Part shown: positions 10,123 through 48,735 of the stretch, piece by piece | Layout: every line of letters starts with the position of its first letter | How positions within the stretch are numbered: position 1 is the first letter of the stretch | From: a phage | Sequence record: OZ470806.1 | Length of the DNA stretch: 49,949 nt | Strand: one strand, 5' to 3' | Made by a program: the position numbers and the translations under genes | Notes under the pieces: generated by a model | What the model saw: only the letters and a program-made list of their open reading frames with translations | Databases searched by the model: none | Told to the model about the DNA's origin: nothing

Positions 10123-10135
10123 CAAGGAGAAAGAA

Positions 10136-20610: not shown

Positions 20611-20640
20611 AAAAGGGGCTTTCGCCCCTTTATTTTTATT
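20611..20640. terminator. bidirectional terminator between convergent genes
   Basis: AAAAGGGGC-tttc-GCCCCTTTATTTTTATT, A/T runs on both sides. Confidence 0.6.
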
Positions 20641-21039: not shown

Positions 21040-21190
21040 ATATACATACATATAAATCAATAAGTTAGCAGTATATATATTTATGTTTGTTCTTTATTGT
21101 TATCTATGTTTTGTGTGATTTTGTGTGTCTGGTGATTTTTCTGTGATTATGCATGTGTCAGTGGTTATGTGTGTATATATATCTATATCC
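21040..21190. repeat. AT/TG-rich intergenic repeat region, copy 1
   Basis: contains AAATCAATAAGTTAG (21054-21068), GGTGATTTTT and GTATATATAT blocks shared with 41365-41550. Confidence 0.5.
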
Positions 21191-27895: not shown

Positions 27896-28828
27896 TTAGA
27901 GAATTGATTCAGGTTTGAAAACCTTCCTCTCTATCCCTTGCCTGTAATTATCATTAATCGGCATCATAATTTCAAGTCCTCTTTCCTCGGCAGCAATGAT
28001 CGCGTCACGATCTGTGCTCTTACAGACAACTCGCATTCTTCTGTTGCCTTTGTACCTGTAAGCTACAATCTCAATGTTAGTTGCATCAAAGCAGGCCCAA
28101 ACCTCCTGACCAGTTGCAAGGTGAATATGTTGCGCATCAATCCAGTCAACGCAAAGATAGATCGTCTTATCTGTGCTTCCTGTTCTCACAACAGACCCGC
28201 GCGTGTAGTCCTTTGCGAGAAAAGACTGATTACCTTCTTCATCAATGAAAAGCACATTGCACATTTCATCATCAATTTCATCTGAATGTACCAAGTAACA
28301 TGGGAGCGCGTGAATGTATCGACCATCTTTAACGCCGCATTCATAATAACCATCTTCAGGAGGATATATCCCTTCATAGGTGCTTAACGGCGTGCGATCA
28401 AATTTTAGTGTTTTTGACATAACGCGCTCGCAGCATTCATGGCTTGCCTGTTTCCCAAACGAATAACCAGAATCACGAGATACTCGCTTATTTGCCTTGA
28501 TCCTATAGTCCTGCGGAACTTTTCCAAGAAAGCGTCCCAAAATATTGATCACTTCGCTGTAAGGTTCTCCGGTTAGCTTCATGATCCAACCAATTCCAGT
28601 ATCGTTTCCGCACACGTTGCAGATAGCGCCGCCGTCGCCTTTTTTATCTCCAAGTTTATCAGTCCATCTAAAGCGATCCTTTCCGCCGCAGTGTGGGCAA
28701 GATTGATGCTTGCCGTTAAAAACTTCATTTGGAAGACCGCAAATACTTTGTAGCGCCTCACGCCATAGTCCCTGCATATATGGGAGAACATCTTCCTTTT
28801 GATAAACCATAAAGTTTTCGTTGTTCAT
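27896..28828 (-). CDS. DNA primase (zinc-ribbon type)
   Basis: ATG 28828 with RBS GAGGTG; CPHCGG...CNVCG zinc-binding motif. Confidence 0.65.
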   Translation of the reverse strand: MNNENFMVYQKEDVLPYMQGLWREALQSICGLPNEVFNGKHQSCPHCGGKDRFRWTDKLGDKKGDGGAICNVCGNDTGIGWIMKLTGEPYSEVINILGRFLGKVPQDYRIKANKRVSRDSGYSFGKQASHECCERVMSKTLKFDRTPLSTYEGIYPPEDGYYECGVKDGRYIHALPCYLVHSDEIDDEMCNVLFIDEEGNQSFLAKDYTRGSVVRTGSTDKTIYLCVDWIDAQHIHLATGQEVWACFDATNIEIVAYRYKGNRRMRVVCKSTDRDAIIAAEERGLEIMMPINDNYRQGIERKVFKPESIL

Positions 28829-28883
28829 ATGCACCTCAAACAAAAAAGCCTGACAGATGATAACATCATGCCAGGCATTGTTT

Positions 28884-29357
28884 TTAGCAATTAGTGCTTT
28901 CAGGTTTATACAGGAATCCGCCAGGCTCATAATCTGACATTCTTACCACTCGCAACATTTCACGCTTATCACATCTCTTTGTGAGCGGTTTGCCATTGGA
29001 ATCAAATCGCAGGTCTGGACGACAGAATGATGCGCGATAGCCTTGACATCCATACTTTTTGTAATCGTTATGCACCTTTTGAGCGCCAGCGGCTGAAATC
29101 ATACCGCGAACACGCCACTGATTTACGGTTTGCTGGCTAACGTTAAGACGTTTTGCCATTGCTGATACACTTCCGTAATACTCAATAAGGATGTCAAGGC
29201 GTGCTTTTAGCCCGGCGCGCACTTCATCTTTTAGTACATAGTATCCTGTAGGGCGCTTGCGCTTTTTCTTATCCTTACCTCGTCGAGTTCCGTTATTGCC
29301 ATTGATTGTGCGTTTGTCAATCTTGCCTGTTGATACCGCGATTCGCTGTTCTTTCAT
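28884..29357 (-). CDS. HTH DNA-binding protein (putative regulator)
   Basis: 157 aa; basic KDKKKRKR tract; helix-turn-helix-like MAKRLNVSQQTVNQW. Confidence 0.5.
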   Translation of the reverse strand: MKEQRIAVSTGKIDKRTINGNNGTRRGKDKKKRKRPTGYYVLKDEVRAGLKARLDILIEYYGSVSAMAKRLNVSQQTVNQWRVRGMISAAGAQKVHNDYKKYGCQGYRASFCRPDLRFDSNGKPLTKRCDKREMLRVVRMSDYEPGGFLYKPESTNC

Positions 29358-32080: not shown

Positions 32081-32668
32081 GTGACTGGCAACCGCTATAA
32101 CGGAAGCAATACGCCGGACGTTGTGCGCGATTTGTGGTCTACGCCGTCTGAGCTTGTAGAATGGATGGAAAGCGAATACGGTGATTATGACATTGACGCG
32201 GCGGCAAGCAAAGAAAATGCTGTATGTGAAAAATTCTACAGCAAGGAAACAAATTGTTTAAAGCGTTGGTGGGGTAGTAATAAGCATATATGGCTGAATC
32301 CACCGTATAGCAATATTACGCCATTTGTTAAGAAGGCGATTGAGCAAATGGAGCACAACAACCAGATCGACATTCTGTTACCTTGCGACACATCAACAGG
32401 ATGGTTTTATGAAGCGCAGCAGCGCGCAGCGGAAATAATCTGGATCACTGGCGAAGTTTACCAGGAGGATGGAACAGAATATTCCCGCACCGGACGCCTT
32501 GCGTTTACTTCCGCGCTAACAGGTAAACCAGTGCAGGGAAACAACAAAGGCAGCGTTATTTTCATCATGCGCGAACTGAAAGAAGGTGAGCAGCAGAAAA
32601 CGCGATACGTTAAAATCAGCGACATTTGCCCTTCGGTGGCAGACCGTCGCGCACGGAAACGGAGCTAA
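32081..32668 (+). CDS. dam: DNA N6-adenine methyltransferase (Dam-like)
   Basis: DLWSTP and NPPY motifs; GTG start. Confidence 0.75.
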   Translation: MTGNRYNGSNTPDVVRDLWSTPSELVEWMESEYGDYDIDAAASKENAVCEKFYSKETNCLKRWWGSNKHIWLNPPYSNITPFVKKAIEQMEHNNQIDILLPCDTSTGWFYEAQQRAAEIIWITGEVYQEDGTEYSRTGRLAFTSALTGKPVQGNNKGSVIFIMRELKEGEQQKTRYVKISDICPSVADRRARKRS

Positions 32669-34777: not shown

Positions 34778-34993
34778 ATGAAAGATTTTTTAAACGCTGC
34801 AACTTCCGGCACTGGCGGCGCGTCAATCACTGGCGCGGTAACTGGTCAAACAACTATTGCAATGGCCAGCTTCGTTTTGATGGCTGCATTTGGTATGTGG
34901 GGCGCTTATCTTCGCTGGCGTGATAGTAAGGCGCTACGTGACGCGCTTGAATGCGGTGATATTAAGAAAGCTATTGAGATCAGAGGTAAATAA
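34778..34993 (+). CDS. holin (putative)
   Basis: 71 aa; hydrophobic segments; charged C-terminus; immediately upstream of endolysin with ATGA coupling. Confidence 0.55.
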
Positions 34994-35565
34994 TGAGTAT
35001 AAAACAAAGAGTGACCGCTGCGGCTTTTGGCGTTGCTCTTGCCCTTACTTCTCCGCTACTGGAGGAAATAGAAGGAGTAAAACATAAGCCGTACAAAGAT
35101 ATTGCTGGGATATGGACGGTTTGCGCCGGAATAACTGGACCTGACGTAATACCAGGCAAAACGTACACACAGAGAGAGTGCGATGCGCTACTGGCAAAGC
35201 ATATCAAGATCGCAAAGGATGAAGTTGATAAACGTGTGAAGGTTGAGATTCCTGATACAATGCGCGCAGCGATGTATTCATTCACATACAATGCTGGCAC
35301 TGGTGCTTTTAGAAATTCAACCATGCTTAAGCTGATTAATAACGGTCGTTATATGGAAGCGTGCAATCAGTTATGGCGATGGACAAAATACACCAATCCA
35401 AAAACAGGAAAGAAAAAACGTCTAAAGGACTGCGCAACCGCCGCGCGGTGGAATTTAAATATTGCATTAAGGATCTGTAATCATGAGAAAGTTATCAGCA
35501 ATCGCGATCGCTGTTATTTTGTCTGGATGTTCAAGCGTTACGCCACTGACCGGATTAATCGGTAG
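34993..35565 (+). CDS. endolysin, T4-lysozyme family with SAR-like N-terminus
   Basis: E-x8-D-x5-T ([16 protein letters not shown]); N-terminal Gly/Ala-rich weakly hydrophobic segment [17 protein letters not shown]. Confidence 0.75.
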
Positions 35566-35881
35566 TAAGCCGGAAATCACAGCACAGGCAGGGGCGGAGA
35601 ACGTAAAGCAGACCGTTGGCGTTACCGCAAAGCAGGACACCAGCACGAAACAGGAAACTACAATAAAGGAATCTGCGGTTGATAAGGTGGACACTTCCAG
35701 CAAGAAGGATTTCACTACGTCAACCATTCAGGCAAACACCATCAAGGCTGATAAAATCCAGATTGTGCAGGGTGAGCAAAGGAAGTGGTACGATCCTATA
35801 ATCTATTGCGCTGCAATTTTCAGTGGTCTTTTGACTATGCTTTACTTTTCCTACCGCAAAGATAACAAAAAGGAGGCTTAA
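35483..35881 (+). CDS. unimolecular spanin (u-spanin) candidate
   Basis: 132 aa; lipobox LSGC at N-terminus and single C-terminal TM segment; overlaps endolysin 3' end. Confidence 0.6.
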
Positions 35882-35895
35882 CGCCTCCTTTGTTT

Positions 35896-36114
35896 TTATG
35901 CATCGGGCCATTCGTGGGAATGGTTTGTTAATTGTTGGTTTTCTTGAAACTCAATATCGTAATGACCAGCCATCACGCGCATTGCCATGTTTTCAACATA
36001 TTCTACAGCTTGCTCACGAGTCCATGAGTCGGCTGGGAACTTTGTAGGAATTTCAGTAGTAGTTCCGTTTTCATGCTTGACAACCAGCGCCACGGTGAAA
36101 AATTTGTTGCTCAT
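35896..36114 (-). CDS. hypothetical protein
   Basis: 72 aa; RBS AAGGAA; own promoter copy upstream. Confidence 0.45.
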   Translation of the reverse strand: MSNKFFTVALVVKHENGTTTEIPTKFPADSWTREQAVEYVENMAMRVMAGHYDIEFQENQQLTNHSHEWPDA

Positions 36115-36150
36115 GGTAACTTCCTTTTGTTGTTTCGTTTCGATGAAACA

Positions 36151-36194
36151 AATATACCCGATACGAGATCGGGAGTTTTAACAAAAAGTGCTAT
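36151..36194 (-). promoter_or_regulatory. promoter with conserved 20-bp element (minus strand)
   Basis: minus-strand ATAGCACTTTTTGTTAAAAC + dyad CCCGAT/ATCGGG spacer + TATATT. Confidence 0.45.
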
Positions 36195-36385
36195 TCAATA
36201 CGCTTTACAGTAACCAACAAAACGCCGTCCTCATCACACAAATTATGCTCTGATATATCAAACGCTCGCATGTCAGAATGAATGAGCGTTAACATTGCGT
36301 GCATGAAGTCGTCATGTGAGATTGAACTTACGGCGCAGAACTTCAATATTTTGTCTATTAGCATTTGACGTAAACAATTCTTCAT
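36191..36385 (-). CDS. hypothetical protein
   Basis: 64 aa; RBS GGAGAAA before ATG 36385; stop embedded in conserved element; overlaps 3' end of upstream gene. Confidence 0.3.
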   Translation of the reverse strand: MKNCLRQMLIDKILKFCAVSSISHDDFMHAMLTLIHSDMRAFDISEHNLCDEDGVLLVTVKRIE

Positions 36386-36704
36386 CGCTCATTTCTCCGA
36401 TCCTTAAAACATCCCTTACCCATTCGTTTTGCATACCTTCAAGGCTGTAAAGTTCAAACGAGAAAGGGCGATTTGCTGATCCTTTCTTACACCAGAACTT
36501 TCCACCAACTCCATCAAGATAACCAGCGGTCATCATTCTTGCGCAAAACTCTTTTGAAACGGCGGTTGCAAACATTCTCGGCGTAAATCCTGCGGCCCTT
36601 GCGAGCCGCTCACATTCTCTATGCTGAAATATAAATTTCGCTATATGTTGACGTGTAAACCATTCGAATGACTCACACCAGCGATACAGATCCAGAAGAA
36701 ACAT
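36312..36704 (-). CDS. hypothetical protein
   Basis: 130 aa, coupled to upstream P-loop gene. Confidence 0.45.
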   Translation of the reverse strand: MFLLDLYRWCESFEWFTRQHIAKFIFQHRECERLARAAGFTPRMFATAVSKEFCARMMTAGYLDGVGGKFWCKKGSANRPFSFELYSLEGMQNEWVRDVLRIGEMSDEELFTSNANRQNIEVLRRKFNLT

Positions 36705-36706
36705 AA

Positions 36707-38290
36707 TTACCCCAGCAATGTTGGATTTACGAAAACAACGCCATTAATCACACAAATATAATTTCTTTCTTCAAGCATCGGCAGCAGTTGCGTTTCCATA
36801 CGCTTCATTACGCCAGCCTGGCCAACAAAAGGCTTAACTTTTCGTGCAGCCTCATATATGGCGCGCACATTCAAGATTCCCTTATTAGCCTTGCCGTGTC
36901 GAGTGATGATCTCGATTAGTTTACCCATTTCAGCATCATCACCAGCATAGCCAGAGGCGTTGGCGGCGCTAATGTATGTTTTGCTCAACTCGCTAAACAT
37001 CAGCAGTGCTTCCTGAACGGTTTCAACTTCAATCTCTTTCGACTTCTGAGGGTATCCACCAGGATTAAACCAGTTGCGGATAGTGTGCAAAACTGAAGCA
37101 ATCCTGATCACCTGCTTATCCATTTTGCCAAGCGCGCCGCGCAGCATTGTATGCGAATACTTTCCTCCATCGGCAAGGTGCGGTTCCATCTCCTGACGAG
37201 CCATGTTAAGCACTCGCATTGCTGATTTGCTGATCTTAAGCTGGATGTTTGATTCACTCATGATGTTATGGATCAGCTTAAAATATTGGCTTTTCAGTTC
37301 TCCATCAACAGGTTCATAAGTAGAATCACCGTTATCATCAACAAACTTTCTACGGCCTAAAAATGATTCCTCACGCACAAGCAAATAACGCTCACTTACA
37401 CCGATACCGCGCGATCCTGCATCCATGATGGCATTGATTGTTTCATCCTGGGCAATTACCGCCATACAGCCAAGAGCTTTAAAACTCATATTGTTGTCAG
37501 CGTTTGCACGAGCTATAGAAACATGACCATGATCCCATGCTTTCAGCACAAGTTCGCTGTTGGTTTTACGTTCGCTATTGGCATATGTCAGACCTAAAAG
37601 GCTGTTAATACTAGTTGCCTCGTCTGAAATCACAGCAAAGTTACCCTGGCGATTGTTGATTCTTGCAAGTCCTTCCGGCGTGGTGTCGGACACAGGGAAA
37701 ACGATGTCACACATCTTTTCCAGTTTTTCTTCCAGATCTTCTTTCTCCTGGTACAGAGATTCCATATCAGCGCCGGAGCGCTCGCTTTTCATCTCTTTTG
37801 CAAGACCTGCCAACTTTGCCTGAATCTTTTTTCTTTCCTTCTTTCGCTGATCGTTAATTCTTTCCACTTCTGCAACCATTGGAGCAAGTGCCAGGCTGTT
37901 AACGGCAGATTTACCAGTTGAAGGAGGCTGGCTTGTGACAACATAAAGAGCTGTCGGCTGATCCGTTCCGTGATACTCAACCGTGAAGCGTCCAAGCATT
38001 GCAGCAGACACGCAGCCTATAAAATGCATATAGGCCGATGATTCAGGGAATTGAACAGAGCGAGCAATGTTGCGCGCCAACTTGCCAACAACATCAACAT
38101 CATTGCCAAGAGAAATTACAGGGTAGCGATCGTTTCCGTTATTAACATCATTAACCTCACCCCAAAAGCTAGACGATTGACGGTATCCGTTTGCCTGAAT
38201 GGACACGCGCACAGGAGACAATCCTTGTGCATCAGCTAATTCGATAATTTGTTTTGGTGTTAGTTTATTGGTTTCAAACGAAAAATTCAT
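36707..38290 (-). CDS. large P-loop protein of unknown function
   Basis: ATG 38290 (MNFSFET) after RBS AAAGGAG; Walker A-like PPSTGKS; charged coiled-coil segment. Confidence 0.5.
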   Translation of the reverse strand: MNFSFETNKLTPKQIIELADAQGLSPVRVSIQANGYRQSSSFWGEVNDVNNGNDRYPVISLGNDVDVVGKLARNIARSVQFPESSAYMHFIGCVSAAMLGRFTVEYHGTDQPTALYVVTSQPPSTGKSAVNSLALAPMVAEVERINDQRKKERKKIQAKLAGLAKEMKSERSGADMESLYQEKEDLEEKLEKMCDIVFPVSDTTPEGLARINNRQGNFAVISDEATSINSLLGLTYANSERKTNSELVLKAWDHGHVSIARANADNNMSFKALGCMAVIAQDETINAIMDAGSRGIGVSERYLLVREESFLGRRKFVDDNGDSTYEPVDGELKSQYFKLIHNIMSESNIQLKISKSAMRVLNMARQEMEPHLADGGKYSHTMLRGALGKMDKQVIRIASVLHTIRNWFNPGGYPQKSKEIEVETVQEALLMFSELSKTYISAANASGYAGDDAEMGKLIEIITRHGKANKGILNVRAIYEAARKVKPFVGQAGVMKRMETQLLPMLEERNYICVINGVVFVNPTLLG

Positions 38291-38317
38291 TGGTGATAAC
38301 TCCTTTTTGATGCGGCA

Positions 38318-38361
38318 ATAATACCGCACCAATGCTACCCGCATTTAACAAAAAATGCTAT
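38318..38361 (-). promoter_or_regulatory. promoter with conserved element variant (minus strand)
   Basis: minus-strand ATAGCATTTTTTGTTAAAT + spacer + TATTAT inside dyad GCGG/CCGC. Confidence 0.4.
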
Positions 38362-38579
38362 TTGATCCGCTCTATGCTAACTAAGATTTTTTCTGGTTCC
38401 TTTGCACTATGGCAATGCGCGGTTACAGAATCAACAAAATCAAAGTAAAGTGATTTGTGATATGAGAATCCAATCAGCCACCCAACCATCGTTTTCTTTA
38501 TTGGCCTGACTATATCGCCAGGATTGAAGGTTTTTGTTGCTGAATGAGTCACCTTATAGCGATATTCAGCCTTGATCAC
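38358..38579 (-). CDS. hypothetical protein
   Basis: 73 aa; coupled to upstream gene; stop embedded in conserved element. Confidence 0.4.
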   Translation of the reverse strand: MIKAEYRYKVTHSATKTFNPGDIVRPIKKTMVGWLIGFSYHKSLYFDFVDSVTAHCHSAKEPEKILVSIERIK

Positions 38580-38962
38580 TTATACATAGCCTCAAACAAA
38601 TGACAGCCACCAGCGGAAAATCCAACTTCTTCGCGGTATAGCGTCCAGCGGTCGCCAGACTCATCAAACACATAACCAGCAACAGCGCCAAGCGCGCGGC
38701 CTTGCTCAATCTGGTAACGCTTTCCTTCTTTGAAATGCTTTTTGCACGGGATCTTGTGATCTACAAATGTGCATTTAATTGTTTTTGTCTTGATGTGACG
38801 ATAGTCAGACTCAACAGCGTTTTGCCACTTGCTACCCTTTGTAATGCTCTTTACCTGGAATTGTTCCAACTCGATCACATCATCGCTACCAGCAATTTTT
38901 TCGTATACAGCTTTATAACGACCGTTCATCAAAACGTTGGTTTTATTGCAGATAACTTTCAT
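38576..38962 (-). CDS. hypothetical protein
   Basis: 128 aa; RBS AAAGGAGAAA. Confidence 0.45.
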   Translation of the reverse strand: MKVICNKTNVLMNGRYKAVYEKIAGSDDVIELEQFQVKSITKGSKWQNAVESDYRHIKTKTIKCTFVDHKIPCKKHFKEGKRYQIEQGRALGAVAGYVFDESGDRWTLYREEVGFSAGGCHLFEAMYK

Positions 38963-38993
38963 CTTTTATTTCTCCTTTCGTTTCGGTGAAATG

Positions 38994-39037
38994 ATTATGC
39001 CAGGCTTTTACACCTGGCTTTTAACAAAAAGTGCTAT
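38994..39037 (-). promoter_or_regulatory. promoter with conserved 20-bp element (minus strand)
   Basis: minus-strand ATAGCACTTTTTGTTAAAA + GCCAGGTGTAAAAGCCTGGC + CATAAT; near-identical to copy at 42471-42514. Confidence 0.45.
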
Positions 39038-39744
39038 TTTGCGTTAGCTTCAAAGACGGCGCGAGCAAAACCTCGCGGAGTGAGGGAGCGGATCATCTTT
39101 GTGCGAGATGATTTTCCGCCAGTTTTGGCCCAGCCTGGATTATCTTTGTCATTCTCTTTCGGCAGGATTAAAGCGCGCGGAGGAATAACAAATCCGTTTC
39201 CAGTCCAAAGGCATGTTTTCTTAAAGTACCGATCCCGCGCAGGAATAATATCAGGGAAGTCGGGATGCTTATCATCTTCCGGCAGATAGCCAGCATAATC
39301 GCACGGATGGAACGTATAATCAGGCTTACGCCATAACGTTGACAGCTTGCCTACAGGATTTTCGATCATGTAAGGAACGCCGAAATAATCAGCGATATGC
39401 GCCGCGATTCTGCAAGTGTCGGCGGCCTCATCCTGGAAAGAGGGATTCTCAAGGCGTTTTTTGGACCAATGGCGAGATCCGCTATTTGCAAGGTCAGTGC
39501 ACGGCGGAAATGCCATAATGAAATCAGGCTTACCCCAATTTTCAAGTTTTGCGGTATATTTGAATAGCTCATCAATCCACACATTAACGTAAAAAATATT
39601 ATCATGGATTATGCGCACTGATTGGTAATCTCCGTGATCGGCATCATCGTAATTAAAGCAAATGCATTTATATCCAGCATCAGCCCAATCTTTAACGGCT
39701 TTACCAGATCCATCAAACAAAGAGAATATTAAACCTTTATACAT
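39034..39744 (-). CDS. minimal DNA (cytosine-5)-methyltransferase-like protein
   Basis: 236 aa; FSLFDGSG (motif I-like), FPPCTDLANSG (PC motif with Thr in place of Gln), MIENPVG (ENV-like), GNGFVIPP (motif X-like); no large target-recognition domain. Confidence 0.5.
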   Translation of the reverse strand: MYKGLIFSLFDGSGKAVKDWADAGYKCICFNYDDADHGDYQSVRIIHDNIFYVNVWIDELFKYTAKLENWGKPDFIMAFPPCTDLANSGSRHWSKKRLENPSFQDEAADTCRIAAHIADYFGVPYMIENPVGKLSTLWRKPDYTFHPCDYAGYLPEDDKHPDFPDIIPARDRYFKKTCLWTGNGFVIPPRALILPKENDKDNPGWAKTGGKSSRTKMIRSLTPRGFARAVFEANAK

Positions 39745-39753
39745 TTCATCACC

Positions 39754-39978
39754 TCAAAACGGAAAGCATCTAGGACAGTTCGGATCAAAATTGCAACCAC
39801 AATCATTAACAATCATAGTTGGATCTGCAAATGCAGCGCCGCATTCATGGTCCATATCCATTTCACCCAACGCATCATCAAGCGTCCTGATTTTATATGC
39901 CACTTCAAGCGCAGCCTCTTTATTCAGTCCGGCATCTTCCGCTTTTTGCAGTCGCTCAAAAAAACCGTCTTGACTCAT
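39754..39978 (-). CDS. hypothetical protein with Cys-rich C-terminus
   Basis: 74 aa; RBS AAGGAG; C-terminal CGCNFDPNCPRC. Confidence 0.45.
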   Translation of the reverse strand: MSQDGFFERLQKAEDAGLNKEAALEVAYKIRTLDDALGEMDMDHECGAAFADPTMIVNDCGCNFDPNCPRCFPF

Positions 39979-40088
39979 TTAATAAACTCCTTAATAACAG
40001 CAATGATAATTACAAGCCCAGCAGTAAAAACAAGCAAACCGACAAGGCCAATCATAACACCAAATAAAATATCAAGCGTCTTAATCAT
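39975..40088 (-). CDS. small hydrophobic membrane peptide (37 aa)
   Basis: MIKTLDILFGVMIGLVGLLVFTAGLVIIIAVIKEFIK; stop overlaps next start (ATGA); RBS GGTGA; below ORF-track cutoff. Confidence 0.4.
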   Translation of the reverse strand: MIKTLDILFGVMIGLVGLLVFTAGLVIIIAVIKEFIK

Positions 40089-40099
40089 TTATTCACCAT

Positions 40100-40126
40100 T
40101 GATAAAATGGGAGGCGGAAACCTCCC
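40100..40126 (-). terminator. rho-independent terminator (minus strand)
   Basis: perfect hairpin GGGAGG-tttccg-CCTCCC followed by ATTTTAT on minus strand. Confidence 0.55.
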
Positions 40127-40135
40127 ATTGGTTAA

Positions 40136-40363
40136 TCATACAGCTTTCCAGCTTTCAATAAACATGCTGTTTTCTTCCAGAAGTTTAATCAATTCTTCGC
40201 GCGTGTATTTGCGGATTTTACTACCTGGATGTGATCCAACAACAAACACACCTTTACCACTCGTGATTGTCAACTGGTTGATTCCACAAGATTTATCCAT
40301 CTTAATGGCGACGCGGTGATGTGAATCAACAGTGTTCATGATGTTAGTAACTTTAGCTTTCAT
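40136..40363 (-). CDS. hypothetical protein
   Basis: ATG 40363 (MKAKV) after RBS GAGGA. Confidence 0.4.
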   Translation of the reverse strand: MKAKVTNIMNTVDSHHRVAIKMDKSCGINQLTITSGKGVFVVGSHPGSKIRKYTREELIKLLEENSMFIESWKAV

Positions 40364-40537
40364 TATGCAATCCTCATTATATTTGGTGTGATAACTATAC
40401 CAGGTTTGAGAAATATTGTTTAGCAATTCGTGCTATCAGTTGAAATAGCTATGGCGCTTTGCTCGCTTGCCGTCTCCGCCATAATGATCATTTGCAACCG
40501 CCACCATCCAGGCATTATGGAATATTATTAGCTTCAT

Positions 40538-40819
40538 CTAATTAATACCAACAACGTTAAAACTCACAGCTTTTGTTGCGCTAAATACATACGCTTCAAC
40601 AGCTTCACCAAATACGCGAATTTTTCCATAACCGTACTGCGCATTCATATTGCGCCAAACCGTCCTGTTAGAGCAGAACGCGTTACCAGTCTTGATAAGA
40701 TTATCCATCTCTTTTCTTAGATCATGATAATCAAGCCAAAATCTATAAGCGCGTTGTTTAATGAGTTTCGCCTTGATTGTTTCGGCTGAGTTTTTAAAAT
40801 CGCTGTTTTTGTAGGCCAT
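40538..40819 (-). CDS. hypothetical protein
   Basis: 93 aa; TAATG coupling with upstream gene. Confidence 0.4.
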   Translation of the reverse strand: MAYKNSDFKNSAETIKAKLIKQRAYRFWLDYHDLRKEMDNLIKTGNAFCSNRTVWRNMNAQYGYGKIRVFGEAVEAYVFSATKAVSFNVVGIN

Positions 40820-41013
40820 TACACAACATCCATAATAGTATTGAATCCACGCAGTTTGAAAGAGTTTCCATGTTTAACAACGTTCCATGTCAGGCCGGAG
40901 TGATACGCAACCATATCCTCAAGATCAATGGTGATGATAGCGCCTTTCTTAAAGATTCCTTTCTCGTGAGTGGTGTCACGCTGTACAACTTTAACATCAA
41001 CTTGATTTTCCAT
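40819..41013 (-). CDS. hypothetical protein
   Basis: ATG 41013 (MENQVDV) after RBS GAGGA; the longer ORF-track version reads through the promoter element. Confidence 0.4.
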   Translation of the reverse strand: MENQVDVKVVQRDTTHEKGIFKKGAIITIDLEDMVAYHSGLTWNVVKHGNSFKLRGFNTIMDVV

Positions 41014-41044
41014 TTTTAAATCCTCGTTCGTTGTCGATGCGCTT

Positions 41045-41088
41045 AATATACCAATCAGAGGCGCATCGGTTTTAACAAAAAGTGCTAT
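41045..41088 (-). promoter_or_regulatory. promoter with conserved 20-bp element (minus strand)
   Basis: minus-strand ATAGCACTTTTTGTTAAAAC + spacer + TATATT inside dyad CGATGCGC/GCGCATCG. Confidence 0.45.
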
Positions 41089-41364
41089 TTGCTGACTGGT
41101 CATTATTCCATCTATTCCATTAATCAGGAATAACATGAATAACTCATTCGCGATCACTTGGATTGTGAGACTTTGAGTTTGGTCAATTTTAATCAAGTGA
41201 TTAACTTTTTGTGTGGAGGGGATAGAGAAACGCGGCCCTCTTGCGTCCTTTCCGGCAATCCTGGCGCGCGCATCTGTTATTTCTGTTCCACATGTTATCT
41301 CAAATAAGCCTCCGCACTTTTAGATAACAGAATCGGCGTTCATCAACAAAAAGAACAAAATAAA

Positions 41365-41550
41365 ATTTATATATATACCAATAAAATCAATAAGTTAGTT
41401 ATATATGTATTTATATTTGTTATTTACTGTTGAGCTTGTTCTATGGGTATATGGTGGGGTGGTGTTGTTTGTGGTGATATGTATGTGTGATTGTATATTT
41501 TTTAATCAATGGTGATGTGTGGTGATTTTTGTATGTATATATATGGGTAT
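41365..41550. repeat. AT/TG-rich intergenic repeat region, copy 2
   Basis: AAATCAATAAGTTAG at 41384-41398; GGTGAT-type and GTATATATAT blocks as in 21040-21190. Confidence 0.5.
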
Positions 41551-41743
41551 GGAGCAATCCTCCGTCAACCAAGTCAACAAGGTCATTTTTAACATAAAAA
41601 CCAATGACTTAACTGAGGCATTTTGTTATCTTTAAACGCGCCACATGCCAAAAATTGTTATTAAAACACAAAAATACATTGACACGTATGAAAGGCAAGG
41701 CAATAATGCATCCAGTTTAAACGCAACAAAAGGAGTAGACGCC

Positions 41744-42214
41744 ATGAGCGAAGAAAATATTAGCGCCATGTCGCGTAGTGAGTTCTGCGATATGCTTCGC
41801 AGCCTGGGCGCGGCAATTGGTAGCGGCGAGCGTAACAATGTATTCATGCCAGCACTTTTCTTGTGCGCTAACGTGGAGAACGGCGACGCAATTACAGCAT
41901 CGTACATGCGCCAGGTTGTCAACCGTGTGCCAGAAGTAAAGCAAAAAGGCGTGATCAGCATTAAGCGAAAGGTGACTGATGAGGGTGATGGCTTTGTGTT
42001 TGCGCTCACTGAAGCCAAAAGCAAGCCTCGCGTGCTGACTGGAGACGATATAGCGAAACTTGAAATCAAGTGGCGAGCAAAGTTTATTGCTCAACTTCTG
42101 AAAACTCAGCCGAGAATAAGCGATCTGGAAGGCGAGCGCCTGGAGGGTGCAGCAATCGCACTTGAGCGAATGAATGAAATGCTTAACGAGATGATAAAGA
42201 TGGGGGATGAATAA
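41744..42214 (+). CDS. hypothetical early protein
   Basis: ATG 41744 (MSEEN) after RBS AAGGAG; first gene after divergent AT-rich region. Confidence 0.45.
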   Translation: MSEENISAMSRSEFCDMLRSLGAAIGSGERNNVFMPALFLCANVENGDAITASYMRQVVNRVPEVKQKGVISIKRKVTDEGDGFVFALTEAKSKPRVLTGDDIAKLEIKWRAKFIAQLLKTQPRISDLEGERLEGAAIALERMNEMLNEMIKMGDE

Positions 42215-44010: not shown

Positions 44011-44241
44011 ATGTACATTAGCAAGAAGATGAAATGCGTTTCCGTTAATTATGGTTGTGCTGGAATGTTCAAGCCTGGCGAAATCTATACGGCGCAAAAA
44101 CTGAAATCATCAACCGGATCTTTTTACGTGAGCAATAGTAAGGGGCATCGCATGTTCCTGAACGGTGGCAAAGGCACTAAGGTTATGGCGCACGCTATGG
44201 TGATTGCTGAATTTGAGGAGGTGAAGGATGGAGACAAATAA
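44011..44241 (+). CDS. hypothetical protein
   Basis: ATG 44011 after RBS GAAGGAGATAAAACG. Confidence 0.4.
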   Translation: MYISKKMKCVSVNYGCAGMFKPGEIYTAQKLKSSTGSFYVSNSKGHRMFLNGGKGTKVMAHAMVIAEFEEVKDGDK

Positions 44242-44449
44242 GCGCGTTAAACACAAGTTTATTGATAATCATGGCGATGCACTTGAGGTATACAAGTTCG
44301 GCGACCGTGTGTTTATTGATGGCACGTTTGAAGGTGGGCGCAGGCCGGATTTTAGGTCGATACTCACCATTGACCAGGTGCGCAAGCTGGCGGATAAGTT
44401 AAATGATCTGGCAGATGAAATCGAATACAAGCAAATTCATTTTAATTGA
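44228..44449 (+). CDS. hypothetical protein
   Basis: 73 aa; RBS GAGGAGGTGAAGG. Confidence 0.4.
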   Translation: METNKRVKHKFIDNHGDALEVYKFGDRVFIDGTFEGGRRPDFRSILTIDQVRKLADKLNDLADEIEYKQIHFN

Positions 44450-44460
44450 TAGGTTTGATA

Positions 44461-45000
44461 ATGAAAAAATACGAATTTGAACTTTGGGGAAGCAAATACC
44501 ATTTTTCCACGAGCAAGCCGATTGTTATCGTTGACCTGGACGGAACGTTATCAGACGGAACGCATCGCTTGCACCTGCTTCCGACAGAAGATTTGCACCT
44601 TACAGAAAGCTGGTCTGAGTTCAATAAGGCGGCTGTTGGCGATTCGCCGATTAAGAGCACGGTTTCAGTAGTTAACGGATTGTGGATGTCAGGATTTGCC
44701 ATCGTTATCCTGACCGGACGCAGCGATGAGGTGATGGCTGACACCTGCGGCTGGTTAAATTATAACGGCATCAAGTACGACGCGTTAATCATGCGCCGCA
44801 AGGAAGATAACCGAAAAGACACGATCATCAAAGAGGAAGTCTTGCGAGCTATCGGGCTGGAAAACATTGTGTGCGCTTTTGATGATTCGCCGAACGTGGT
44901 TAAGCACTTCCGCAGCCTGGGAATCACAACCTATCAGGTCACGGAATACGACAAGCCACATAATCACATCCAATCGCACGGCGTGGATGAATTAAAATAG
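44461..45000 (+). CDS. HAD-superfamily phosphatase (putative nucleotidase)
   Basis: IVIVDLDGTLSDG motif (DxDGT); ATG 44461. Confidence 0.55.
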   Translation: MKKYEFELWGSKYHFSTSKPIVIVDLDGTLSDGTHRLHLLPTEDLHLTESWSEFNKAAVGDSPIKSTVSVVNGLWMSGFAIVILTGRSDEVMADTCGWLNYNGIKYDALIMRRKEDNRKDTIIKEEVLRAIGLENIVCAFDDSPNVVKHFRSLGITTYQVTEYDKPHNHIQSHGVDELK

Positions 45001-45040
45001 CACTTTTTGCAAAAACAGATTGTCGGGCTTGCGGTATAGT
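44997..45040 (+). promoter_or_regulatory. promoter with conserved element variant
   Basis: ATAGCACTTTTTGCAAAAAC + 19-nt spacer + TATAGT. Confidence 0.45.
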
Positions 45041-45071
45041 AAGACCATCGACAACAAACGAGGATTAAACA

Positions 45072-45335
45072 ATGGCTAACAAGATCGAGTTTTTTAAAGC
45101 GGTAGACGTTATTGATGGCGCTCCTAGCTTCTTTGCCATCCATTCTATTGACGGCAATGATATTGGGTACAATGTTATCCGTCGAGATGGAATCTCAAAA
45201 CTTAGTGACCTTGTGAGCTTTATTGTGGCAAATGGTAAATGTGCATGGCACGATTCGCCACGAGAGCCGCGCCGCCGCGACATGCAAAATCCAGTTCTGC
45301 TTTACACGCTGGTAATTGAAGGAGTCAACAAATGA
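45072..45335 (+). CDS. hypothetical protein
   Basis: 87 aa; RBS GAGGATTAAACA. Confidence 0.4.
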   Translation: MANKIEFFKAVDVIDGAPSFFAIHSIDGNDIGYNVIRRDGISKLSDLVSFIVANGKCAWHDSPREPRRRDMQNPVLLYTLVIEGVNK

Positions 45336-45517
45336 TTTGGTTACTTGTATTTTTAGTGGTTTTCTTTTATATTTCAGGCTTATTCATCTTCCGAGCGCTG
45401 GTGAAAACATGCGATTGCACGGATAAAGATCAGCCTCTTGTTCTGATGTTCTGGTTTGTGTGGTTTTGGGTGGCGCTTTATCAGATTGTGAGCGAAAAAA
45501 GCCGATTTAAGTGGTGA
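45332..45517 (+). CDS. small membrane protein
   Basis: 61 aa; two hydrophobic segments; ATGA coupling. Confidence 0.4.
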   Translation: MIWLLVFLVVFFYISGLFIFRALVKTCDCTDKDQPLVLMFWFVWFWVALYQIVSEKSRFKW

Positions 45518-45572
45518 TTCTTGCTATAGCGCATTCATGCAGTGCGCTATGTTGAGATAACAACAGGAGATC

Positions 45573-45710
45573 ATGAAGATGCGAAACTTCGAAAAAATCG
45601 TAACCAAGAAGAAGCGCTACAGCTATGATGAGCACCGCGAGATGAATCAACGCTATCGCAAGAAGCTACAGCGCCCAGGCAAACATTCAAGCAGACATGG
45701 AGACAACTAA
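45573..45710 (+). CDS. small basic protein (45 aa)
   Basis: ATG with strong RBS AGGAGATC; Lys/Arg-rich; stop abuts next ATG; below ORF-track cutoff. Confidence 0.4.
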   Translation: MKMRNFEKIVTKKKRYSYDEHREMNQRYRKKLQRPGKHSSRHGDN

Positions 45711-45902
45711 ATGCAATTGCCACAATTTGACGAAAAAAGCGAAGAGATTGACAAAACTGCAAGTCACCTTCGAGAGCTTGCCGACATGATAGAGCGCGGT
45801 CAGGTTATGATTGTCAATATGACGATTAAAAGCGAGAATAGAAATTTCAAGGTTTTAAGCGAGACAACAGAAATTACTGTATTGAAAGCAAGAGGTGAAT
45901 AA
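45711..45902 (+). CDS. hypothetical protein
   Basis: 63 aa; coupled to neighbours. Confidence 0.4.
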   Translation: MQLPQFDEKSEEIDKTASHLRELADMIERGQVMIVNMTIKSENRNFKVLSETTEITVLKARGE

Positions 45903-45904
45903 AT

Positions 45905-46495
45905 ATGAAGCGCGACATTATCATCCTTAACGGACCGCCAGGAGTTGGCAAGGATACGCTTGCGGCATACTTAACGGGCCATCGTTACGCAGCCGTAAAG
46001 GCATTATTCAAACAGCCGATGTTCGATATTGCATTTTCCATGCTTGGCGTTTACCGATATGACGAGTTCATTGATCTGTATAACGACCGCGAGCAGAAAG
46101 AAAAGCCTCAAGCAATCTTGCAAGGCAAGTCGCCTCGCCAGTTCATGATCTGGATTAGCGAAGAAGTTATGAAGCCAGCTTTTGGCGAGCAATATTTCGG
46201 AAATCGCATGGTTGAGCAAGTACACGAAATGTACAGAGATTTGGCTGTTGTAATTAGTGATGGCGGATTCCCTGAAGAAATCAAGCCGCTAGTTAAGGCA
46301 GGCCATGAAGTTCACATTTGCCGACTGCATCGCGAAGGCTTCACGTTTGATGGCGATTCACGAAACTATATTGACCTGAGCGGATACCATCACCGCGTAA
46401 AACATTACGACTTCACAATGATTGATGGCGACCCAGAAAAGACTGTTGACGAGATCATCAAAACGGTCCAGTGGAAACACATTAAGATCAAATAG
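45905..46495 (+). CDS. deoxynucleoside monophosphate kinase-like P-loop kinase
   Basis: N-terminal IIILNGPPGVGKDT P-loop, resembling T4 gp1-type dNMP kinase N-terminus. Confidence 0.6.
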   Translation: MKRDIIILNGPPGVGKDTLAAYLTGHRYAAVKALFKQPMFDIAFSMLGVYRYDEFIDLYNDREQKEKPQAILQGKSPRQFMIWISEEVMKPAFGEQYFGNRMVEQVHEMYRDLAVVISDGGFPEEIKPLVKAGHEVHICRLHREGFTFDGDSRNYIDLSGYHHRVKHYDFTMIDGDPEKTVDEIIKTVQWKHIKIK

Positions 46496-46535
46496 CACGA
46501 ATTGCTAAAAGCGGGGCGCAATGCCTCGCTATAAT
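46492..46535 (+). promoter_or_regulatory. promoter with conserved element variant
   Basis: ATAGCACGAATTGCTAAAAG + 19-nt spacer + TATAAT. Confidence 0.45.
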
Positions 46536-46565
46536 GCAAACACCAATCAACGAGAGGAAATCATC

Positions 46566-46970
46566 ATGGTAGAGTTAAACGACATTCGCGTTGGAACAAA
46601 ATTTCGCGTAACCTGGGTATATGATGAGCGATGCGGCATTCGTAAAGGCGAGATTGTAACGGCTTCCGATCGCTATATCGGATCGTTAAAAGAGTTTAAC
46701 CGACCACGCATCAAGAATGGCTATATCATTACTCGACGACTTGGCTTTGATCATTATTGCGTAGTGGCAACTCAAGGAGTTTTGATTGAGCTTAAGCGAA
46801 TCAGCGATCATCGCGGCTGCCATGTTAAGACAATGAAAATGCAATTTCAGCGAGCGAGATACGATGCGCGACGGATGCGCCGACTTGCGCGCAATGCGAT
46901 CAAGTTCAAAAAGCCTGGTGGTGATTTTTACGGCATGTACAAGGGGATTTCGCGAAATGCTGGGAAATAA
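46566..46970 (+). CDS. hypothetical protein
   Basis: ATG 46566 after RBS GAGAGGAAA. Confidence 0.4.
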   Translation: MVELNDIRVGTKFRVTWVYDERCGIRKGEIVTASDRYIGSLKEFNRPRIKNGYIITRRLGFDHYCVVATQGVLIELKRISDHRGCHVKTMKMQFQRARYDARRMRRLARNAIKFKKPGGDFYGMYKGISRNAGK

Positions 46971-47069
46971 CAACAATGCAACCAACCCAAAGCCACCGTT
47001 TGATTTTCATGAAATCATGATTGTGTTATTCTTGATTCTCTTAGTTATTTATTCAGTGAGGGCCGCACT

Positions 47070-47333
47070 ATGGTTTTTAACGCACTAAAACGAATCTTTA
47101 AACATGAATACCGGATCGTTGCTTGCACAGAATGCAAGATTTATTACCTGCAACGCCGCCGCGTTATTAGTGGCGATTGGGAATATCTTACGGATGATGA
47201 TTTCGGCTTTTGGGCTATGGAGTTCAATAGCTACAGTGAGGCGCGTGAATACGCTAAAAAGTTGCACAAGTTCCGACCTTACAAACTGCGTTTGCTGGTT
47301 GTCAAAAAGTGCGACGTATGGGATCACGAATGA
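47070..47333 (+). CDS. hypothetical protein
   Basis: 87 aa; CTEC motif. Confidence 0.4.
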   Translation: MVFNALKRIFKHEYRIVACTECKIYYLQRRRVISGDWEYLTDDDFGFWAMEFNSYSEAREYAKKLHKFRPYKLRLLVVKKCDVWDHE

Positions 47334-47506
47334 AAAGAGTAATTATCACCTTTATTGCACTTATCGCTGGTTCCCACTTGGCTTATGGGTATAGCGGCAT
47401 TGTTGAGTCAATCGGTGGATTGATTATCTTCATGGCTGGCGCATGTTACGGATACGGCGATGGATTTAAAAACGGCAAGCGTTACATCCTGACTGGGAAG
47501 AAATAA
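47330..47506 (+). CDS. small membrane protein
   Basis: ATG 47330 overlapping upstream stop; Gly-rich hydrophobic segments. Confidence 0.4.
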   Translation: MKRVIITFIALIAGSHLAYGYSGIVESIGGLIIFMAGACYGYGDGFKNGKRYILTGKK

Positions 47507-47548
47507 TGTTAACCGCGCCGCTTCGGTGGCGCTAAAAGGAGGAAACAA

Positions 47549-47836
47549 ATGGCTAAAAGCAATCGTAAAATGTTGATTAACGCATTCGAAAAGGCAGCGC
47601 TTGAGCGTGGTTGGAATGACTCATTTCACACGGCAAACTGTATCCGCCGTTACGGATTCAAGAATTGCCGCTCATGGGCGCGTCAAATGGCTTCATGGTA
47701 TGATCTTGATGCGCATTACCTTGATATGGATTGCGCCCTGGTTGAAATGATTGAGCAGGCCGCACTAGAGGATCGACCATTAACGCAATCTGATTTTGAC
47801 GATTTTGTGCGCGATGAAATCTATTACATGAGCTAA
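47549..47836 (+). CDS. hypothetical protein
   Basis: 95 aa; RBS AAAGGAGGAAACAA. Confidence 0.45.
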   Translation: MAKSNRKMLINAFEKAALERGWNDSFHTANCIRRYGFKNCRSWARQMASWYDLDAHYLDMDCALVEMIEQAALEDRPLTQSDFDDFVRDEIYYMS

Positions 47837-47879
47837 TAGCACTTTTTGTTAAAACTTCCGCGAGGGCATTTGTTAAAGT
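47836..47879 (+). promoter_or_regulatory. promoter with conserved 20-bp element (weak -10)
   Basis: ATAGCACTTTTTGTTAAAAC + 19-nt spacer + TAAAGT. Confidence 0.35.
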
Positions 47880-47911
47880 GTCCTCATTGAAGCGAAACAG
47901 AGGAAATCAAA

Positions 47912-48124
47912 ATGAAAATTCGAATCACCAGGGTTGACATTGACCGTAACGACGGAAGCATTACCCTTGAGCAATGCGGATTCAAAGTTGGTGACATTGT
48001 AGAGGTTGACGGATTCTTTCGCGATGGTTCTTACTGCGTGTTAGCAATCCGCAACACGGAAGAAATTCGAATCGGTGATAACATCGGCGTAAACCATGAC
48101 GAATGCGAGGTAGTAGAAGAATGA
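47912..48124 (+). CDS. hypothetical protein
   Basis: 70 aa; RBS AGAGGAAATCAAA. Confidence 0.45.
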   Translation: MKIRITRVDIDRNDGSITLEQCGFKVGDIVEVDGFFRDGSYCVLAIRNTEEIRIGDNIGVNHDECEVVEE

Positions 48125-48354
48125 TCACGATTAACCTTTCAGAGAAGCAAGCATATCAAGTGATGCGCTACATTTCTGGCTTTGGTATGGAAGGCGCTAT
48201 TGGTGAGGTTGCGGATCAGATTTGCCGCCAACTTACACCAGCACCAACGCGAGCGGCAGAAACTGCCGCATGGCGCAACGAGGCTGGATACATCCAGAAA
48301 GCTATTGAAGACTGGAAGCGCAAAAACGAGACTGCGGAGGATGCAGGATTATGA
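48121..48354 (+). CDS. hypothetical protein
   Basis: ATG 48121 overlapping upstream stop (ATGA). Confidence 0.4.
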   Translation: MITINLSEKQAYQVMRYISGFGMEGAIGEVADQICRQLTPAPTRAAETAAWRNEAGYIQKAIEDWKRKNETAEDAGL

Positions 48355-48665
48355 TTTACATTCACTACTACCAGATCGGGACAAACGAAAACAAGCAGGA
48401 GCGCAGAGCAATTTGTGACACGCTCGAAGATGCGAAAGCACAGCAACGCGTTTTGGGTGGTGTAATTCAGGCTTTTGAGCCAGTGGAAGACATAGAGCAC
48501 AGAGAGCATTTGAAAGAGATTGTTGTTGATGAAATTTCATCACTAATCGACGACATGACAAATCACGGTCCTGGTTCTCCGTGGGAAGAAGCTGGATCGA
48601 CGGAGTGGGATTGCGCTAAAGTTTCAACGATTAACAACTTTCGTGAGTTGCTCGACGATTTTTAA
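48351..48665 (+). CDS. hypothetical protein
   Basis: 104 aa, acidic; ATGA coupling. Confidence 0.4.
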   Translation: MIYIHYYQIGTNENKQERRAICDTLEDAKAQQRVLGGVIQAFEPVEDIEHREHLKEIVVDEISSLIDDMTNHGPGSPWEEAGSTEWDCAKVSTINNFRELLDDF

Positions 48666-48735
48666 TTAAAATTGAATGCCTCATACAGCGAACAGGACGC
48701 ATTTTGACGAGGCATTTTTTAGGTAAGGTGATTCA

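Follow-up and report, generated by a model that had tools for sequence, protein, structure and literature searches.

The leftward gene block at 35896–41013 (minus strand) of the phage sequence OZ470806.1 is most probably not one system. It reads as a conserved leftward early and DNA-metabolism block of Drexlerviridae, of the Hanrivervirus-like kind, with four family-specific promoters. The window, meaning the whole 49,949-nt stretch analysed, corresponds in its 49.9 kb to about a single T1-like phage, and its sequence identifies it as a Hanrivervirus-like Drexlerviridae genome, essentially one T1-like phage genome. An earlier interpretation, made from the letters alone and called here the sequence-only reading, had named the block as its best candidate for an undescribed system. 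This does not hold, because the helicase is family-wide and tied to replication, and the Dcm-like methyltransferase, a 128-aa protein and a Gp54-like protein have published orthologues. The literature already covers the helicase family, the methyltransferase and two of the small proteins, so the block is ordinary and already known.

Conservation and synteny

A megablast search with 35800–41300 matched 217 phage records, 34 of them over 80% or more of its length. The best matches, 93–97% identical, are the Escherichia phages EC147, morffagbaw, phiE31-2, JakobBernoulli (Bas07) and KarlJaspers (Bas06), and Shigella phage pSf-1. The records of EC147, Bas06 and Bas07 place these three phages in Drexlerviridae, Tempevirinae, genus Hanrivervirus. 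Presence, absence and identity of single genes across relatives were determined by tblastn.

In T1 (NC_005833) the lysis cassette ST13–ST11 is followed by the leftward run ST10–ST1 (44105–48674), which comprises ST10, the ST9 'DNA helicase', an HNH endonuclease, ST7 and small open reading frames (ORFs). The same lysis-convergent layout is found in Rogue1 (Rogunavirinae), KLPN1 (Webervirus), Bas11 (Henuseptimavirus, MZ501085) and KarlJaspers. The blocks of T1, Rogue1, KLPN1, Bas06, Bas07 and Bas11 thus share the position, the leftward orientation and the convergence with holin, endolysin and spanin genes. The T1-type blocks also have the same order of winged-helix gene, DUF3987 helicase, 128-aa-type protein and small ORFs, and the same promoter box. 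They differ from the window in that T1 and Rogue1 lack Dcm, T1 carries the HNH endonuclease beside its helicase, the small ORFs are others, and JakobBernoulli and KarlJaspers have four to six extra upstream genes.

The helicase is 57–72% identical in T1, Rogue1 and KLPN1 and occurs in 921 phage records, in 900 of them near full length. For the 130-aa winged-helix protein the identity in the same three phages is 48–51%, and for the C-terminal half of the 128-aa protein (826 phage records) it is 55–64%. Dcm is present in KLPN1 and Bas11 and absent from T1 and Rogue1, and its 1501 phage records include the unrelated Vequintavirinae and Dhillonvirus. The 72-, 73-, 37-, 33- and 93-aa ORFs and the Gp54-like gene are restricted to Tempevirinae, and the content differs between Hanriverviruses: in JakobBernoulli the 72-aa gene is missing and six additional genes lie upstream, in KarlJaspers the 33- and 93-aa genes are missing, and EC147 has one ORF more than the window block. 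By this comparison the block is a three-gene core (128-aa protein, helicase, 130-aa protein) with a frequent optional Dcm and a variable fringe.

The sequence-only reading had called for a comparison with T1-like genomes, to learn if the cassette varies. Variation is found in the fringe, whose small ORFs vary even between Hanriverviruses. The backbone shows what that reading had set beforehand against its own proposal, namely conserved position and replication roles: the helicase, winged-helix and 128-aa proteins are syntenic in T1, Rogue1, KLPN1 and Bas11.

The DUF3987 helicase and its winged-helix partner

The helicase gene starts with an ATG at 38290 behind a good ribosome-binding site (RBS), which gives 527 residues, as annotated in Bas07. 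Residues 100–449 match PF13148 (DUF3987) with 149.5 bits at a cut-off of 27, and the protein matches phrog_2373 'DNA helicase' at 1e-245. Walker A (PSTGKS) and Walker B (FAVISDE) motifs are present, and residues 443–527 match a separate PHROG, phrog_7327. Searches against the PDB by sequence gave no meaningful match.

DUF3987 proteins have been classed among the superfamily 6 (SF6), MCM-related helicases, and it was argued that they are phage replicative helicases tied to primases and winged-helix domains (Kazlauskas et al., PMC4889955). Another study shows that AgaPH, a DUF3987 member, is an oligomeric 5′–3′ DNA helicase in vitro whose activity depends on the Walker motifs (PMC11724360). The window protein shares with these relatives the strong PF13148 match, both Walker motifs and an associated winged-helix element. 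Its genome has a primase gene elsewhere. In contrast, the window helicase has no PriCT or archaeo-eukaryotic primase (AEP) fusion, its primase is of the DnaG type and non-adjacent (a DnaG-type Zn-ribbon primase at 27896–28930, about 8 kb away), and an additional winged-helix protein comes from a separate downstream gene. In Vibrio phage pYD38-A a helicase homologue (35% identity) adjoins a primase and an SF2 helicase. The window also encodes an SF2 helicase, a VRR-NUC nuclease and a Dam methyltransferase elsewhere.

On the DUF3987 family data, the protein is predicted to be the replicative helicase of the phage. It would be an oligomeric, ATP-driven 5′–3′ helicase and would probably work with the separately encoded DnaG-type primase, while binding to DNA or to the origin may come from the adjacent winged-helix protein. 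The 130-aa winged-helix protein is a conserved partner of the helicase and is mislabelled 'YdbL' in many records. Two further sources were considered and rejected: the Retron-Eco11 'phage helicase trigger' paper, which concerns SF2 helicases (UvsW, D10) and not DUF3987, and a Druantia/Zorya preprint, which is irrelevant.

The Dcm-like methyltransferase

The 236-aa protein contains motif I (LFDGSG, residues 9–14), motif IV (PPC, 80–82) and motif VI (ENP, 128–130) of C5-cytosine methyltransferases. G12, S13 and G14 are invariant in an alignment of 24 family members, as are motifs IV and VI and the residues C82, E128, K175 and K176. The order of motif I (F-x-G-x-G), IV (P-C) and VI (E-N-x) is that of the classical enzymes E. 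coli Dcm/M.EcoRII, M.HhaI and DNMT3A. In contrast to these, motifs VIII and IX lie only about 40 residues apart here, from RDRYFKK (170–176) to SLTPRGFARAV (220–230). This is the most variable stretch of the alignment, the C-terminal SLTPRGFARAV holds motifs IX and X in compressed form, and the protein, roughly half as large as E. coli Dcm, stays below the PF00145 thresholds.

The family contains more than 3,300 clustered proteins, mostly of 225–260 aa. PF00145 is matched by 6 of the 24 sampled members, with a best value of 1.3e-6. A single-sequence search of the PDB gives only matches at E~1 to DNMT3B, around motif IV. The PHROG family that the protein matches, phrog_757, is annotated 'DNA methyltransferase'. 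Membership in a divergent branch of C5 methyltransferases is based on the motifs and on experiments with an orthologue.

This orthologue is the Dcm of KarlJaspers (Bas06), which is 97.9% identical to the window protein, with five residues different and the same gene length of 711 bp. Phage K42 is a KarlJaspers strain, and its Dcm triggers retron Ec86/Eco1 (bioRxiv 10.1101/2023.08.16.553469). In that study four of four retron escape mutants lie in the 711-bp dcm, one of them being a 2,262-bp deletion that removes four genes. K42 Dcm expressed alone is toxic only with the retron and raises 5-methylcytosine (5mC) in the multicopy single-stranded DNA (msDNA), as measured by liquid chromatography with mass spectrometry (LC-MS), whereas the C82A/E128A/K175A/K176A mutant is inert. 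Mutation of the CCTGG site in the msDNA abolishes defence, and the authors also align Dcm structurally to DNMT3A (10.1101/2023.08.16.553469). A later paper cites the Dcm–retron finding as established. The window and K42/KarlJaspers genes agree in their 711 bp, the C82/E128/K175/K176 residues and their neighbouring genes; the known experiments are those of the orthologue.

The window Dcm would thus be an orphan S-adenosylmethionine (SAM)-dependent C5 methyltransferase that makes 5mC at or around CCWGG, as shown for the near-identical orthologue. It may protect the genome's 110 CCWGG sites from CCWGG-specific restriction, at the cost of being sensed by retron Ec86/Eco1. Neither CCWGG (110 sites, observed/expected 0.98) nor GATC (263 sites, observed/expected 0.99) is avoided in the genome, which fits self-protection by Dcm and Dam, as circumstantial evidence only.

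A Dam-type N6-adenine methyltransferase gene (PF05869, 1e-60) lies at 32081–32668 (+) behind a promoter of the same class as those of the block (box 31888). Together with Dcm, two orphan methyltransferases are thus carried by the phage. CCWGG, the Dcm target, occurs in the spacer directly upstream of the -10 hexamer in 4 of 15 promoters of the window (39000/39013, 42492/42504, 42967 and 43970), and two promoter spacers carry it as the CCAGG...CCTGG arms of a hairpin. A similar CCAGG/CCTGG arm pair is found in T1, which has no Dcm, so the CCWGG in the spacers, considered as a possible regulatory signal, may have no meaning.

Two small proteins with immune-sensed orthologues

The 128-aa protein is 75% identical to, and of the same length as, the SECphi27 'protein of unknown function (128aa)'. 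Expression of the SECphi27 protein is toxic together with Mokosh type I (10.1101/2022.08.27.505566). The escape mutants, an E7 frameshift, Y109C and C102*, are viable (10.1101/2022.08.27.505566), and the frameshift and nonsense alleles indicate that the protein is dispensable in the laboratory. Of the escape sites, Y109 is kept in the window protein and C102 is a serine; Mokosh triggering is known for the SECphi27 version.

The Gp54-like protein matches 9AXB_A with a phmmer E-value of 6.3e-15 and is 51.5% identical to bas11_0054 over 66 aa (BLASTP), which occupies the same block position. Bas11 Gp54 (PDB 9AXB, 9ERV) is a non-essential 66-aa protein that binds and activates CapRelSJ46, a toxin–antitoxin defence protein of which it is the alternative trigger (PMC11578894). 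The two proteins are thus alike over their full length and in size, and both are encoded near the promoter-proximal end of the same block. Homologues from SECphi27, Bas5, Bas8 and Bas10 do not activate CapRelSJ46, and Gp54 and the Bas10 homologue differ at only three places, residue 25 among them (PMC11578894). The window protein keeps G24 but has Ala at residue 25, where Bas11 Gp54 has Ile. In view of Ala25 and of the non-triggering homologues of Bas10 and three other phages, triggering of CapRelSJ46 by the window protein appears doubtful.

Both beta-barrel proteins would be dispensable accessory proteins, with orthologues that Mokosh type I and CapRelSJ46 respectively sense, and, like the other small ORFs, they are probably host-directed early proteins. 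When the profiles of the 128-aa and Gp54 families are compared with each other, a relationship in sequence is not supported.

Promoter boxes and predicted transcription units

The 21-nt box AATAGCACTTTTTGTTAAAAC occurs in 14 copies in the window at no more than three mismatches, against 0 expected from shuffled sequences, and it is conserved in the Drexlerviridae T1, Rogue1, KLPN1 and Bas11. Each of the four block boxes is followed after about 18 nt by a -10-like hexamer and then by a conserved CATCGAAACGA-like leader and the RBS/ATG. The spacer hairpins of copies 2 and 4 have folding energies of -6.5 and -5.9 kcal/mol, respectively, which 0 of 200 shuffles reach in either case. A standard sigma-70 scan detected none of the four block promoters, in which the conserved box replaces the normal -35 element.

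From the box positions, the promoter at 41069 would serve the Gp54-like gene, the 93-, 33-, 75-, 37- and 74-aa ORFs and dcm, and that at 39018 the 128- and 73-aa genes. The promoter at 38342 would serve the helicase gene, the winged-helix gene and the 64-aa ORF, and that at 36175 the 72-aa gene. Transcription of the block would stop at the bidirectional terminator that it has in common with the lysis cassette. The same family-specific promoter class would also drive the rightward early and replication genes.

Across Drexlerviridae the conserved unit consists of the box AATAGCAC(TTTTT/GAATT)G(T/C)TAAAAC, a -10 hexamer at a distance of about 18 nt and, after it, a CATCGAAACGA-like leader. The box occupies the place of a -35 element or of a class II activator site. 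Its positions in the window are 29370, 31888, 32929, 36175, 38342, 39018, 41069, 42470, 42933, 43937, 44996 and 47835. A strong GC hairpin forms the spacer in 5 of 15 window copies, and its sequence differs from copy to copy. Three spacer hairpins of this kind are annotated as terminators in the T1 record (38973–39001, 41980–42007 and 35930–35971), and hairpin-spacer boxes may be overlapping terminator–promoter units. Two copies lie antisense within the rightward structural module, at 6343–6363 (-) and 10103–10123 (-), and have T1 equivalents at 15067–15087 (-) and 18831–18851 (-). A bidirectional terminator (10041–10062) stands about 40 nt past the box at 10103, which could give a very short antisense RNA. 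Rfam at gathering thresholds finds no RNA family anywhere in the window.

Gene content of the block

The features of the block are collected in Table 1. The ORF listing gives 13 ORFs on the minus strand, and a profile search assigns 11 of them to PHROG families. Just beside the block lies the end of the lysis cassette (holin, endolysin, spanin), at 35881, and the T1 and Rogue1 records have terminators annotated at the equivalent spanin/block junction. The GC skew is below zero over 36–41 kb, which fits leftward coding, and the GC content drops to 0.39–0.40 at 40–42 kb.

Table 1. Genes, promoter boxes and terminator of the leftward block, in order of position
Feature	Position	Strand	Details
Intrinsic-terminator-like hairpin, bidirectional	35869..35891	.	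Between spanin gene and block end; 9-bp stem, both strands (terminator scan)
72-aa acidic protein, variable last gene of block	35896-36114	-	phrog_27210 3e-12; pI (isoelectric point) 4.9
Promoter box copy 4	36175-36195	-	Exact consensus; GC hairpin spacer, then TATATT
64-aa ORF overlapping 3′ end of winged-helix gene	36191-36385	-	phrog_9539 3e-23
130-aa winged-helix (winged helix-turn-helix, wHTH) protein	36312-36704	-	Directly downstream of helicase gene
527-aa DUF3987 (SF6/MCM-like) predicted replicative helicase	36707-38290	-	PF13148, phrog_2373, Walker A/B
Promoter box copy 3	38342-38362	-	3 mismatches, then TATTAT; also in JakobBernoulli, EC147
73-aa basic protein	38358-38579	-	phrog_12725 2e-10; weak SH3-like sequence similarity
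128-aa two-domain beta-barrel protein	38576-38962	-	Orthologue of SECphi27 '128aa' Mokosh type I trigger
Promoter box copy 2	39018-39038	-	Overlaps dcm stop codon; spacer hairpin with CCAGG and CCTGG
236-aa Dcm-like C5-cytosine DNA methyltransferase	39034-39744	-	phrog_757 5e-86
74-aa acidic Cys-rich protein	39754-39978	-	C-terminal CxC...CxxC cluster; phrog_9323 1.5e-39; 5 Cys, pI 4.2
37-aa hydrophobic peptide, single transmembrane-like	39975-40088	-	ORF listing
75-aa basic protein	40136-40363	-	phrog_4344 1.5e-33
33-aa ORF	40436-40537	-	phrog_32259 1.4e-20
93-aa basic protein	40538-40819	-	JakobBernoulli label 'putative homing endonuclease'
64-aa Gp54(Bas11) homologue, first gene of block	40819-41013	-	phrog_7421 9e-39; PDB 9AXB/9ERV E 6e-15
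Promoter box copy 1	41069-41089	-	Exact consensus, then TATATT; conserved in EC147, JakobBernoulli; 56 nt beyond block end

The inventory of the sequence-only reading largely stands. All ORFs that it described between the lysis cassette and the AT-rich region exist on the minus strand, 13 in number and not about 12, and the opposite orientation and own promoters are borne out. The large P-loop protein is present with its Walker motifs, at 527 aa from the RBS-backed ATG and not 528. The 236-aa protein does have C5 methyltransferase motifs and no large target-recognition domain (TRD), and the Cys-rich 74-aa protein and the 37-aa hydrophobic peptide were both recovered. The four leftward copies of the conserved promoter were found as well, one of them (41069–41089) just outside the block.

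The 72-aa gene has a 98.6% identical counterpart in EC147 and is absent from JakobBernoulli, KarlJaspers, T1, Rogue1 and KLPN1. The 64-aa ORF at 36191–36385 is 43.8% identical in T1 and 38.9% in KLPN1 and is annotated in JakobBernoulli and KarlJaspers. The 73-aa protein is weakly similar to CD2AP SH3 domains (phmmer E 0.056) and 36% identical to bas11_0047; T1, Rogue1 and KLPN1 do not have it. The 74-aa protein is 81% identical to bas11_0050 and 57% identical to T1 ST6 over 46 aa. The 37-aa peptide has no PHROG match and is annotated in JakobBernoulli, EC147 and KarlJaspers (68–95% identity). Homologues of the 75-aa protein are T1 ST5 (42%), a KLPN1 protein (30%) and bas11_0051 (53%). The 33-aa ORF is found in JakobBernoulli and EC147 and is absent from KarlJaspers. 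The 93-aa protein has counterparts in JakobBernoulli (98%) and EC147 (80%), but none in KarlJaspers and Bas11. Searches of Pfam, NCBIfam and PADLOC gave no match to it, those of PHROG none that is significant, and no homing endonuclease motif was found in it.

Restriction sites

The whole window contains 0 EcoRI, 0 EcoRV, 0 HindIII, 0 SalI, 0 PvuII, 0 EcoKI, 1 PstI and 1 BamHI sites, where 5–15 are expected for each, and six-base palindromes are almost absent from the genome. The avoidance of palindromes is weaker in T1, which has, for example, 19 EcoRV sites. The BASEL study describes a strong restriction resistance of Hanriverviruses that is not linked to any gene, and palindrome avoidance may explain it.

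Alternative readings

It is very unlikely that the methyltransferase, the P-loop protein and the small proteins of the block work jointly as one self-contained and so far undescribed system for defence, anti-defence or DNA modification. Opposite orientation, own promoters, a DNA methyltransferase, several ORFs without family annotation and the Hanrivervirus restriction resistance without a causal gene would all suit such a system. There is no evolutionary link between methyltransferase and helicase, however: the helicase module is kept in T1 and Rogue1, which lack Dcm, and Dcm stands alone in the unrelated Vequintavirinae and Dhillonvirus phages. The helicase family is assigned to replication, the restriction resistance is more simply explained by the lack of EcoRI, EcoRV and EcoKI sites, and the synteny data largely refute the proposal. 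PADLOC-DB gives no system-level match and no defence system, and its only hits among the block proteins are three marginal ones (E 0.002–0.005), of Dcm to a generic type II methyltransferase, of the helicase coiled region to JetC and of the 128-aa protein to DruM. From the island for defence, anti-defence or DNA modification that the sequence-only reading expected, a DNA-modification gene remains, the TRD-poor C5 methyltransferase, while no PADLOC defence model is matched. The accessory nature of the cassette holds for its variable small ORFs, for Dcm and the 128-aa protein, whose loss is not lethal, and for Gp54, which is non-essential for Bas11; it does not hold for the conserved backbone. 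More improbable still is a split enzyme, in which the 236-aa protein is the catalytic half and a neighbour such as the 128-aa protein recognises the target, as in M.AquI. Such an arrangement would account for the short stretch of about 40 residues between motifs VIII and IX, for the conserved gene downstream of dcm and for the weak PADLOC match of the 128-aa protein to the DruM cytosine methylase (E 0.005). Yet K42 Dcm alone, expressed from a plasmid, methylated msDNA and triggered the retron, and Dcm occurs without the 128-aa protein in other phage groups. The 128-aa protein in turn is predicted to be all-beta and SH3-like, is present in the Dcm-less T1 and Rogue1, and has its DruM match on a Rossmann-fold N-terminus that is incompatible with the predicted fold. 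The SH3-like beta-barrel prediction, the presence in T1 and Rogue1 and the activity of K42 Dcm alone rule out the 128-aa protein as the target-recognition subunit.

A less remote, though still tentative, alternative is that the small non-core proteins (128-aa, Gp54-like, 73-, 74-, 75-, 93- and 72-aa) are individual counter-defence or host-takeover effectors, so that the promoter-proximal part is an anti-defence collection attached to a replication module. The orthologues of two of them are dispensable and sensed by immune systems, a pattern that the authors of the Gp54 study suggest to be typical of counter-defence proteins (PMC11578894). Gene content varies among close relatives, and two of the proteins are strongly acidic (pI 4.2 and 4.9). 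Against this, inhibitory activity is known for none of these proteins, profile and sequence searches find no described anti-defence protein that is homologous to them, and beside the helicase the 128-aa protein is conserved family-wide, which fits a housekeeping accessory role equally well. The targets of the 128-aa, Gp54-like, 73-, 74- and 72-aa proteins could be counter-defence, RNA polymerase or the replisome. Two readings are the less probable outcome: that the small beta-barrel and acidic proteins are host-directed effectors, and that the TRD-poor methyltransferase is not a simple duplicate of the host Dcm.

The preferred reading, a conserved early and DNA-metabolism block with a replicative helicase and an orphan methyltransferase, is itself weakened by several points. 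The literature yielded no Drexlerviridae DUF3987 protein with a biochemical test, and the promoters are assigned only from position, orientation and conservation, with a non-canonical -35 region. The window Dcm has no PF00145 or NCBIfam match at E≤0.1, and no chain in the PDB matches its family profile at E≤0.1. In the K42 study the CCWGG specificity was inferred from msDNA mutants, and the protective role of the phage enzyme against restriction is likewise inferred. Control msDNA from dcm+ MG1655 is poorly methylated without the phage enzyme (10.1101/2023.08.16.553469), which suggests that the phage enzyme may differ from host Dcm in target or substrate. Its target may be another cytosine, its motif may be relaxed, or it may act on hairpin or single-stranded DNA.

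Other features of the genome

The AT-rich gap at 41200–41640, between the leftward block and the rightward early genes, contains no convincing ORF and may be a divergent control region or an origin. It has a G/T-rich repeat (TGTGTGGTGATTTTTGT-like; 41456, 41516) in common with the first AT-rich region (21100–21160; 21126).

A gene for a 75-aa lipoprotein (MKKLIAVLIAAVTLTGC...) at 20640–20867 (-) lies behind a promoter box at 20922 and occupies the position of the T1 cor superinfection-exclusion gene.

In the endolysin ORF (34993–35565) a 1-nt deletion is found at about 35415, within ...GGKKE..., in comparison with EC147 and JakobBernoulli. The frame is shifted over the last 23 residues, and the ORF extends into the spanin gene by 83 nt, with 190 aa compared with 162 aa. 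The indel is either a sequencing error or a real variant.

Significance

The result is mainly negative, in that the best candidate for an undescribed system is a standard Drexlerviridae helicase and accessory block. This one 5-kb block nevertheless carries three genes whose orthologues trigger three immune systems, namely Dcm for retron Eco1, the 128-aa protein for Mokosh type I and Gp54 for CapRelSJ46. If the small proteins are indeed effectors, the block would be where T1-like phages keep proteins that bacterial immunity has learned to sense. Such a phage could serve to establish which sequences one of the smallest C5 DNA methyltransferases really recognises, and it would be a compact system in which to ask why these early proteins are watched by immune systems.

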